DNA from: Acidimicrobiales bacterium
GTDB taxonomy: Bacteria > Actinomycetota > Acidimicrobiia > Acidimicrobiales > CADCSY01
Reading direction: 5' to 3'
Assembly: GCA_038233555.1 (NCBI GenBank)
Contig: JBBSLT010000003.1
Location: 1-46,280, forward strand
DNA: 46,280 nt
Below, in pieces: positions 1-2,034 of the stretch. The position numbers and the translations under genes are program-made. Numbering within the stretch: position 1 is the stretch's first letter; each line of letters starts with the position of its first letter. The notes under the pieces are model-generated. The model was not told the DNA's origin and did not search any database. It saw only the letters and a program-made list of their open reading frames with translations.

Positions 1-200
1 CACACGGCTTCCAGCGCATAAAGGCCTCCTCGTCCGGGTTCGGCTACGACCGTCGGAGTCGACCCAGGATCACCTACATATCATGCGCAGTCCAGCGGGT
101 AGAGCGCCCCATAACGTTCGACGCCGCTGATCACCGGATAGCCGCAAAGTGCCTGCTTGAGAATGTCGACGGGCGTTGCGAACGGTTCGTAGCGTTCGAG

Positions 201-345
201 AGGTCCTGGTCGAGGTAGCTCACAAAGTGCCTGCCGGCCCCCTGCGGGGTCTGGCTTTCGAACGAAGAGCGACTCGGGCTTGGCCGTGGCGTGGCTCGAG
301 AGAGGACTCGCACCCACCCCAAGCAGGAGTGCCCGTCGCGGTTCC
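201..345 (+). ncRNA. Putative IS110 bridge RNA (target-binding and donor-binding loops)
   Basis: Two stem-loops, each GCTC-[11 nt ending CT]...GAG(C/T). 223-234 is identical to 145-156; 320-327 is the reverse complement of 152-159. TAGCGT -10 at 190-195. Ends approximate. Confidence 0.7.
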
Positions 346-370
346 ACCATCCGGCAGACAGGGAGAACGC

Positions 371-1399: not shown

Positions 1400-1403
1400 T
1401 AGC

Positions 1404-1497
1404 GGGCCCGGGAGGACAATCGGGAACGACTCGAAGCCAGCGTGACCGGCCTCGCATCCCTGACGACCGGCTCTTCGGCAAGGTCACTCCCGGACCC
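1404..1497. other. Structured non-coding segment 3' of the IS110 transposase
   Basis: GGGCCCGGGAG (1404-1414) pairs with CTCCCGGACCC (1487-1497), one mismatch; internal GTGACC/GGTCAC complement. Confidence 0.5.
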
Positions 1498-1506
1498 GCC
1501 ACAACG

Positions 1507-1700
1507 CTACGACCCACCGCTCACCAGGTCCTCGCGCCCGCCGCCACCGGAGACCCCGAGGATCAGCACGGGGCCCACGCCGGGGGCGTAGAGCTTGTAC
1601 TCCAACACGTCGGGCTCGATGGCGATGGTGTCTTTGGTCAACAGCACCTGGTCGAACTGGCCGAAGGGCACCTCGGCCAGCCCTCGGTGCTGAGCACCTC
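1507..1700 (-). pseudogene. C-terminal fragment of a conserved actinobacterial hypothetical (likely secreted) protein
   Basis: EVPFGQFDQVLLTKDTIAIEPDVLEYKLYAPGVGPVL reads as real protein but has no own start and is frameshifted upstream. Confidence 0.5.
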
Positions 1701-2034
1701 GCCGTCCCCCCGGGCGTCGTAATTGTGGGCCCATACCAGGAAGTGCCAACCGGTCGAGCCAAGGCTCGAACCCCATCCCCACGGCCCAGGGCTCGACCAC
1801 CCACGAGGAGGGCGAGCGCAGGCGCGCCGGGTCGACCGCCAGGCGCACCACCACTGGTAGGCGCCGGAACCAGGCCTGGTGCAGCGCCCGCACGGTCGGC
1901 TCCGGGTGGGAGAAACACCGCCTCGTCGACCGCATAGTTGGGGACACCGGCCCACGCCGCGGGGACCTCTCCGGCGGAGCGGCGATCACCACCCCCCGCC
2001 CCAGCGCGACCGGCCCGGGACAGGGCGTGATCAT
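1701..2034 (-). pseudogene. Frameshifted fragment resembling the N-terminal extension of an Acidimicrobiia UvrD-like helicase
   Basis: PGPVALGRGVVI...LHQAW...PVVVRLAVDPARLR...WLDRL continues as HFLVWAHNYDAR in another frame; no helicase core follows. Family assignment from recall. Confidence 0.45.

Follow-up and report, generated by a model that had tools for sequence, protein, structure and literature searches.

A decayed IS110-group element in an Acidimicrobiales genome and the probable bridge RNA of its clade

The DNA analyzed here, referred to below as the window, is a stretch of 46,280 nucleotides from an Acidimicrobiales bacterium (assembly GCA_038233555.1, contig JBBSLT010000003.1, forward strand). 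Positions 155 to about 1518 of the window hold what we take, with a probability of roughly 0.85, to be a decayed single-copy member of the IS110 group, belonging to a clade that possesses a bridge RNA and is common in Acidimicrobiia. The element may instead start at 154, depending on the crossover model. Its features are collected in Table 1. The transposase ORF scored well above the Pfam cut-offs for both domains of the family, DEDD_Tnp_IS110 (64.9 bits against 29) and Transposase_20 (66.1 bits against 21.3). An N-terminal DEDD domain and a C-terminal Tnp domain with the conserved serine were found in the window and in an intact relative (L003), and the residue aligned with the nucleophile of IS621 is kept in both (FSSGG). 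L003 matched the solved transposases of IS621 and ISCro4 with E values of 1e-11 and 3.7e-11, respectively. A ribosome-binding site and the start codon of the transposase lie directly 3' of the RNA structure. The element occurs once in the source genome (2.84 Mb in 345 contigs), and a second IS110-type DEDD match, on contig C263, is unrelated to it. The flanking ORFs gave no Pfam match, and no tRNA was found in positions 1-2500.

Table 1. Features of the element and of its putative bridge RNA in the window
Feature	Position	Strand	Remarks
Left half of insertion site (left target)	145-154	+	All 10 nt shared with the left target guide
Left non-coding end of the IS, encoding the putative bridge RNA	155-370	+	Homologous to the left ends of 70 relatives; conserved covarying fold
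-10-like hexamer GAGAAT	159-164	+	Partner -35 would sit in the missing right end, across the circle junction
5' stem-loop	175-193	+	175-182 pairs with 186-193; helix 1, 80% of cells paired
Basal stem of target-binding loop, 5' strand (long)	200-221	+	Helices 2 and 3, 98% and 92% paired
Left target guide	222-232	+	Sense of the left flank's top strand
Apical hairpin of target-binding loop	233-255	+	Helix 4, 94.6% paired; 5 of 8 pairs compensatory; G+C
Right target guide	256-266	+	259-263 reads five right-flank bases; 264-266 complementary to TTC of the relatives' right junction
Basal stem of target-binding loop, 3' strand	267-281	+	5 nt absent after 275/276 compared with relatives
Stem closing donor-binding loop, 5' strand	283-297	+	Helices 5 and 6, 96.6% and 99% paired
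Left donor guide	298-309	+	Block AGAGAGGA matches the last bases of the relatives' right ends; letters after the block not conserved
Right donor guide	320-327	+	Complementary to the element's first bases (152/153-159)
Stem closing donor-binding loop, 3' strand	327-342	+	Helices 5 and 6
IS110-family transposase ORF, 342 aa	371-1399	+	PF01548 9.7e-18; PF02371 3.8e-18
Remaining proximal part of right non-coding end	1400-1518	+	Includes a nearly invariant structured block, 1404-1500

To place this copy among its relatives, one genome per species was scanned, which yielded 303 loci, and the best 80 of these 303 were kept. Nearly all of the 80 come from Acidimicrobiia MAGs, and the complete genome of Aquihabitans sp. 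McL0605 carries two identical intact copies (L003 and L004). We tabulated 74 of the 80, leaving out six whose match starts inside the protein (L065, L067, L071, L073, L075, and L077). The left-end motif was found in 70 of the 74 (it was unrecognised in L050, L058, L070, and L082), and these 70 left ends align with the window across the whole 5' non-coding region. All 70 end at the position equivalent to 153-155 of the window, where the preliminary description had placed the left junction. This boundary was located by the motif and can be taken as the true one, because identical copies within a genome (L003/L004, L020/21/22/27, and L034/35/36) diverge directly outside ...CCT on the left and ...GGATTC on the right. 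A right end was recognisable in 68 of the 70, reading ...TTGAC(T/A/C)CA(A/G)AGAGGATTC or a close variant (L009, L011, L060, L072, L076, and L081); it lies about 190-220 nt past the point where the protein match stops, and the left end of intact relatives measures about 218 nt. The ends (GCTTGAG... and ...GAGGATT(C)) form no terminal inverted repeats, the repeat shared by both junctions is a single base, and all copies sit in the same REP-loop motif, as is usual for IS110 elements. Relatives are complete with both non-coding ends. In 65 of the 74 tabulated loci, a -35-like TTGAC(T/A/C) near the right end accompanies GAGACT, GAGAAT, or a similar hexamer near the left end, and this -10-like hexamer would be paired with the -35 across the junction of a circular form.

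The fold of the left end was derived entirely from the family alignment, because the single sequence of 155-370 folded no better than its shuffles (z -0.39). In the alignment of the window with 57 distinct left ends (58 sequences), standard pairing was found in 92.8% of cells over 45 pairs, compared to 87.5% in shuffles (0 of 500 as high), and it fell to 36.8-49.6% when the partners were slid. Changes on both sides of a pair were observed in 19 pairs versus 12.5 in the control; they include one pair of helix 1 (CG 31, GC 15), 11 of the 16 pairs of helices 2 and 3, and one pair of helices 5 and 6 (AU 36, GC 16). From 5' to 3', the fold consists of a stem-loop, a long basal stem, loop 1 with its apical hairpin, a second stem, and loop 2, i.e., a structured left-end RNA with a 5' stem-loop and two internal loops, as in bridge RNAs. 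The proposal that the 5' end of this IS110-family element encodes a two-loop, bridge-RNA-like molecule is thereby borne out by stem covariation in the 58 sequences, and the strings and coordinates it gave for both loops were all correct. In the window, loop 1 comprises GCTC (218-221), ACAAAGTGCCT (222-232), the hairpin (233-255), TTTCGAACGAA (256-266), and GAGC (267-270), while loop 2 comprises GCTC (294-297), GAGAGAGGACT (298-308), CAAGCAG (320-326), and GAGT (327-330). Loop 2 had been said to lack an obvious apical hairpin, and indeed only a 2-bp inner helix is predicted in it. A search of 155-370 against Rfam gave no family match even at E values up to 10; sub-threshold matches were confined to 1395-1524 on the minus strand.

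Both loops contain sequences that recur at the left junction. The 12-mer at 145-156 has a single further exact copy in the 46-kb window, at 223-234, and none of 100 shuffles produced such a match. The 8-mer at 152-159 is present as its reverse complement at 320-327; by itself this match is weak (4 matches in the window versus 1.13 expected, with 3 of 100 shuffles reaching 4), and it gains meaning solely through covariation in the relatives. Such covariation between guides and DNA was found in about 70 relatives, in agreement with the earlier naming of the left target, right target, and right donor guides and with the earlier assignment of loop 1 to the insertion site and of loop 2 to the element's own ends.

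The covariation of the loop 1 strands with the flanks, which had been suggested as a check, was examined by permutation. These tests ignore the kinship of the elements, and part of the flank similarity is that of the REP family itself; with this reservation, the left target guide agreed with the left flank at 258 of 416 positions compared to 237.0 +/- 5.1 in permutations (52 distinct pairs; 4 of 20000 permutations as high, z 4.1), and the reverse complement of the right target guide agreed with the right flank at 225 of 488 compared to 181.9 +/- 6.6 (61 pairs; 0 of 20000, z 6.5). On the left, eight positions were tested and the last six carry the signal; on the right, it comes from flank positions 2-5. 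When the right target guide was slid along the flank, matches dropped from 206 of 305 in register to 33-105. The left flank varies among copies of one element and covaries with the guide, and compensated changes were seen from GTG to GCG (L010 and L047) and from GTG to CTG (L072 and L076). Such named, independent compensations weigh more than the permutation counts. Loop 1 therefore covaries with the left and the right target half-sites; both of its strands do so, and the loops are not invariant.

Loop 2 is complementary to the right and left tips of the element. Between the left donor guide and the right end, 7-8 nt agree (A(G/A)AGAGGA), and the two change together in L009 and L072; the core letters of this guide have no match in most lineages. 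For the right donor guide, three covarying states were observed, namely GCTT/AAGC, ACTT/AAGT (L010 and L011), and GATT/AATC (L047, L060, and L072), with a G-U pair in L007, L014, L018, L033, and L076 and one mismatch in L012 as the exceptions. Over 11 variable positions, the guides and their sites differ by at most 2 mismatches in 27 of the 67 distinct combinations and by at most 3 in 46 of them.

Further examination of the junctions gave a different picture from the CT core that had been proposed for both ends. The right ends of the 68 relatives read GGATTC, or the variants GGGATC and GGATCC, instead of ...GGA-CT, such that the left junction (...CCT) and the right junction (...ATT(C)) have one base in common. 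The statement that the left strands of both loops end in CT holds for the window and fails for the family: the last two letters of the loop 2 strand are TC in most lineages, AC, TT, or GT in others, and CT in the window, and since they vary, a CT ending of both strands is not a family feature. No core dinucleotide is the same at both ends and in the four guides, which read different letters at the first core position. The flanks are short palindromes composed of a C-rich arm, four variable bases, GTGCC, the insertion point, G with 3-4 further bases, and a G-rich arm. The natural targets are the loops of short REP-like palindromes, and empty copies of the same target modules are present in the same genomes.

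Occupied sites have the form ...GTGCC-T-[GCTTGAG ... GAGGAT]-T-C-G..., with which three empty sites are compatible: GTGCC-T-CG and GTGCC-TT-CG, the main and alternative registers of the preliminary description, and GTGCC followed directly by G. We favor the last, in which the element probably enters between ...GTGCC and G.... Its left tip would then supply a T and its right tip TTC, leaving only one C common to both junctions, and a target C would stand opposite a donor T directly 5' of the shared base. The circle junction expected from this crossover is ...GGATTC followed by TGCTTGAG, and an empty allele reading GTGCCTCG would be incompatible with it.

A census of empty sister repeats supports this placement. 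In 81 genomes of one Acidimicrobiaceae genus, GTGCC was followed directly by GTACGGGG in 86 of 148 pattern matches (counted by hand); TC stood between the halves in 1 of these matches and TTC in none. The same 81 genomes contained 84 right-junction matches, distributed over 38 genomes (control 1), 19 of which had that right flank. When GTGCC, 0-4 nt, and GTACGGGG were searched for in five genomes, 10 of the 19 matches were gap-free, with TC in 1, C in 2, and TTC in 0, and in the 7 gap-free sites that we read completely the left module is that of occupied sites. Moreover, the spacing between -35 and -10 across the circle junction in 62 of the 65 loci would be 17 nt for the crossover before G, 15 nt for the main register, and 14 nt for the alternative one. 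The empty site is therefore probably 2 nt shorter than the one with CT-CGTT originally proposed. An initial empty-site pattern that demanded CC and GG at set distances did not exceed its control in frequency and was dropped.

The strongest competitor, a serious one that we nevertheless consider clearly less likely, is the main register itself. It proposes an empty site ...GTGC-CT-CG..., a circle ...GAGGA-TT-GCTTG..., a target core CT, a donor core TT, and an exchange 3' of T as in IS621, with the common gap-free repeats not being targets at all. Such an arrangement would put both loops in one register, with 2 spacer nucleotides and then a 9-nt left guide, and an invariant A would face T in both right guides. 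The covariation of the left flank begins exactly 9 nt before this T (positions 3-8), the right target guide reads CTCG in L006, L055/56/79, L059, and L060, and T is near-invariant at the second core position in the IS621-like elements described by Hiraizumi et al. (2024, PMC11208158). By comparison, the crossover before G puts C at that position, against the near-invariant T, and places the guides of the two loops in registers 2 nt apart relative to the stems. Three empty TC sites are also known: L136 in G410, one in G407, and one in G465. The first joins the halves of two loci, as an excision-type exchange would; it consists of the left module of one locus and the right half of another, whose own left half is occupied by an element that has foreign sequence as its right flank, and it looks like an exchange product between two copies.

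The frequencies of these sites speak against the main register. In the 81 genomes, empty TC sites are at background level, 1 of 148, compared to 19 occupied and 86 gap-free sites, and the single one lies in G465, among the 43 genomes without a right-junction match. If TC sites were the targets, they would have to be almost always occupied in genomes carrying the element and almost absent from those 43, and five recent identical copies would each need a separate rare TC variant. The 15-nt promoter spacing is a further difficulty, as are the letters of the guides: in most lineages, the second core position of the left donor guide is C instead of T, and the same is true of the left target guide in L005, L012, and L061/63/64.

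Searches for the junction and for empty alleles among relatives gave the following results. The tandem or circle-junction pattern (AGAGGA, 0-6 nt, GCTTGAGA) was matched 33 times, in 31 of the 401 genomes searched from the class, never with the expected spacer, and the 7 matches viewed in context were all in unrelated sequence. In metagenome contigs, at least 120 stretches were screened for this junction; 8 were flagged by one criterion, and none of them was IS-like. Searches with the flanks of L017 and L026 found no clean pair of occupied and empty orthologues. For L017, G003 has an orthologous left flank with 90% identity, but the two sequences part at the palindrome and stay different rightward of it. 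For L026, the left flank is occupied in G410, whereas G409 has it empty, in the gap-free form. Conservation of the L026 right flank within the genus begins only 400 nt outward, and G410 and G409 were not counted as a clean pair because their right flanks are not orthologous.

The window copy itself is in a state of decay. No right-end motif was found within 420 nt of the stop codon, nor next to IS sequence anywhere in the source genome. Homology to the relatives ends near 1516, and about 90 nt of the distal right end, including the -35 and the left donor site, are missing from about 1519 onward; this copy is therefore not a complete element with both non-coding ends. Having lost the donor site and the outward -35, it cannot form a donor junction, and neither the circle donor GAGAGGA-CT-GCTT nor the right junction that had been postulated for the source genome has a counterpart here. 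The transposase frame is open, but comparison with L003, L005, and L006 shows that it has lost 1 nt at 559/560 and 2 nt near 596-598, and the roughly 13 residues encoded between these deletions are garbled. The garbled stretch is part of the conserved DEDD domain; it follows the WAIE motif and comes immediately behind the second acidic residue. In the basal stem of the RNA, the window is the only row of the alignment with a 5-column gap after 275/276.

Sequencing runs shed light on the history of these lesions. Contigs from runs X1 and X2 reproduce the lesions of the window (X1 may be the source sample), and X3 and X4 contain less-decayed alleles, with T present behind 559 and GGTCG behind 275. 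The X3 and X4 alleles carry the 2-nt lesion without the 1-nt deletion, so the 2-nt lesion is the older one; the 1-nt deletion compensates for it, and the loss of 5 nt from the basal stem is real. A 1976-nt contig of run X4 covers 1519-2383 and continues leftward of 1519 with unrelated sequence. Without a right end, with a garbled DEDD domain, and with an RNA basal stem short of 5 nt, the window copy cannot move. The view of this locus as a decoded programmable recombinase is not supported: the copy is single, frameshifted, and truncated, and the intact relatives lie elsewhere. The empty sites predicted for the source genome were absent as well, with 0 exact matches under the three models; one match with a single mismatch for each of two models (C24:11887 and C32:5337) is uninformative. 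An X3 contig departs from the window behind 155 and an X1 contig does so near 152; because the region 85-155 is high-copy in X3, these departing contigs were not taken as an empty allele. No joints were reported from the sequencing runs. Among the runs listed as containing this stretch, none is recorded as RNA, a result that carries no information on expression.

It might be asked whether the relic is kept for a function in the host, as a domesticated pair of recombinase and RNA, and is not drifting junk. We regard this as improbable. The deletion at 559/560 does restore a frame that the older lesion had broken, the remaining ORF is open, and the locus is near-identical in metagenomes of 13 studies; this recurrence, however, may reflect one widespread species, and the neighboring host ORF, too, seems to be frameshifted and shows different indels in different runs, such that indels may simply be common here. 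The roughly 13 garbled residues fall in a conserved domain, and the RNA stem has suffered a deletion, both of which speak against such a role.

An even less probable reading is that the loops are not guides, the 5' region being a leader that regulates translation of the transposase and the flank matches reflecting a site preference of the protein. The position of the translation start, directly after the structure, would suit such a leader, and the expected values of the permutations indicate that the flank similarity is partly REP conservation. Against it, the compensated changes tie loop letters to the flanks and to the element tip in independent lineages, the register control favors guide pairing, and the architecture is the same as that of the experimentally proven IS621 RNA as described in the cited accounts. 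The poorest fit of all, with hardly any probability left to it, is the alternative register (TCGT), with an empty site ...GTGCCT-TCG... and both T's derived from the target: agreement of the consensus left donor guide (AAAGAGGAT) with the right end would extend to 9 nt and take in an AT core, but TTC stood between the halves in 0 of 148 and 0 of 19 matches, the promoter spacing would be 14 nt, and L009 and L081 have one T at the right junction.

Returning to the reading of the element as an IS110-group member with a bridge RNA, we propose that intact relatives would produce this RNA, that the transposase would bind it, and that it would guide recombination in the manner of IS621. The 5' strand of loop 1 (222-232 here) repeats the top strand on the left side of the insertion point and would thus pair with the bottom strand, and its 3' strand (259-266) complements the top strand on the right side. 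Loop 2 stands in the same relation to the two ends of the element itself, with 298-306 for the right end and 320-327 for the left end.

The bases at the junctions bear on how such an exchange might proceed. Directly 5' of the shared base, left junctions have C and right junctions have T, and the right donor guide carries the complement of C, whereas most right target guides carry the complement of T. Each right guide thus carries the complement of its partner's base, which means that the guides match the integrated junctions, i.e., the products. This match holds both for the crossover before G and for the main register, and it would fit models in which the top strand is exchanged first or exclusively. 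Copy-out and top-strand models have been presented for IS110 (bioRxiv 10.1101/2025.10.25.684509 and 10.64898/2026.08.31.748434), together with an excision complex (PMC13626964). As outlined in these accounts, transfer of the top strand only would leave the target's core base at the left junction and the donor's at the right, and the C and T junctions of the clade look alike to this; the likeness in strandedness is suggested by the sequences and may not extend further. Tentatively, and with somewhat less than even confidence, we propose that target and donor of this clade naturally differ at the first core position and that its bridge RNA is matched to the recombination products, which also serve as substrates of excision, and not to insertion substrates.

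The closest known system is the IS621-type bridge recombinase; among the features tested, the shared core dinucleotide and the completeness of the window copy are the exceptions. The principle is also that of the seekRNA of IS1111/IS110 elements, an element-encoded RNA that reads the target and the element ends. In the IS1111 group, the RNA lies in the right end according to Durrant et al. (2024, PMC11208160), in contrast to the left end in the window clade. Bridge RNAs were predicted in 85.7% of IS110-group elements in the same paper, so an actinobacterial member was to be expected. As far as IS621 is described in that paper and by Hiraizumi et al. (PMC11208158), it shares with the clade a DEDD and Tnp-domain recombinase with a conserved serine, a left-end RNA with a 5' stem-loop and two internal loops, the sense of the guides (the 5' strand of each loop like the top strand, the 3' strand complementary), REP-type targets, and the arrangement of a -35 in the right end and a -10 in the left end. 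Compared to these descriptions of IS621, the protein of the clade is only distantly similar, over the Tnp domain alone (E 1e-11), and both non-coding ends are long. Its junctions lack a common dinucleotide (CT on the left, TT or TC on the right), its left donor guide mostly leaves the core uncovered, its right target guide reads about five flank bases, and its natural sites typically have 2-3 mismatches, a looser match than that reported for IS621. ISPpu9 and ISPpu10 of Pseudomonas also insert into repetitive extragenic palindromes (PMC12288879; bioRxiv 10.64898/2026.03.19.712850), and the extra small RNA gene that these sources describe downstream of the ISPpu9 transposase is reminiscent of the conserved block at 1404-1500; the likeness is one of description, and the window clade belongs to a different phylum.

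The principle of bridge RNAs has been established since 2024, and the window copy is dead. What the locus adds is a case of bridge-RNA guides legible in the raw sequence, from a phylum in which no such RNA has been put to the test. Our literature search found no description of an actinobacterial bridge RNA, and the supplementary tables of Durrant et al. may already list this clade. The intact relative in a cultured Aquihabitans strain offers a GC-rich orthologue that targets REP loops, and the inequality of the junction bases could help to understand the use of core positions and of handshake-like pairing. If the crossover between GTGCC and G is correct, the exchange would take place 3' of a C and not of the near-invariant T, and the clade would represent a natural variant of bridge recombination that bears on directionality and on the choice of the core.

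A block of ~100 nt on the 3' side of the transposase gene of the relic, a decayed single-copy IS110-family element, is nearly unchanged across 34 relatives, and its conservation exceeds that of the protein. Within it, GGGAGGAC and GTCACTCCC form a long-range stem in which one pair shows compensatory change (AU in 30, GC in 4). On the minus strand of the block, Rfam gave sub-threshold hits to two Mycobacterium sRNAs, Ms_IGR-2 (E 0.011) and ncrMT1302 (E 0.13).

Coordinates of features at the relic and of palindromes in the window's own genome
Feature	Location	Strand	Description
Conserved block	window 1404-1500	+	same block directly after the transposase stop in the related IS110-type loci L003-L082
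Longer palindrome, three copies	window's own genome (G000), contigs C30:15068, C57:2860, C66:2814	minus	TCTTTGTCG ... CGACAAAGA
Host ORF adjoining the relic	window 1507-2034	-	protein-like stretches in two frames

Compared with the window, contigs from two sequencing runs (X3 and X4) represent alleles of the relic with an extra T behind position 559 in the transposase ORF and an extra GGTCG behind position 275 in the basal stem of the bridge RNA. By the 1-nt deletion at 559/560, the window has regained the reading frame after an older 2-nt deletion (596-598). The adjoining host ORF, for which the Pfam search returned no match, looks frameshifted, its protein-like stretches being split over two frames; single-base indels within it (at 1586, 1681, 1746, and 1913) differ between runs.

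The longer palindromes, whose centre is ACAGTGCCTCGCACT(G/C), are a REP-like family containing AGTGCCTCG in the window's own genome. A different repeat of 74 nt occupies the start of the contig (window 1-74) and recurs with 97% identity at C33:11664-11737 of the same genome; reads from runs X1 and X2 cover it ~4-10x as deeply as the remainder, and positions 78-92 form a branch point of several run contigs. This genome also contains a second IS110-type DEDD domain (69.3 bits) on the minus strand of a short contig (C263:145-585), which has no similarity to the window's element at the DNA level. A chance sighting in a pattern match was a tandem array of a ~50-nt repeat (CAGTTGCGGAGC.ACTGCAAAGCTGCCTGGTG.CGCGAGGCGCCCCC) at ~1520-1760 of locus L125 in genome G143.

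On the reverse strand of locus L094 (genome G001, ~2440-2477), a palindrome contains, in this order, GTGCC, the first eight bases of the element, GA, and CGGGG, although the site holds no element; it could be an element remnant or a loop variant. In genome G410, the right half of the locus that is intact in genome G409 (L139) is joined via TC (L136) to a left module that elsewhere is an occupied left flank, and in the orthologue of the left half of the G409 locus sits an element whose right flank is different (loci concerned: L136 and L155/L151 in G410, L139 in G409). This arrangement in G410 versus G409 looks like flank exchange between copies.
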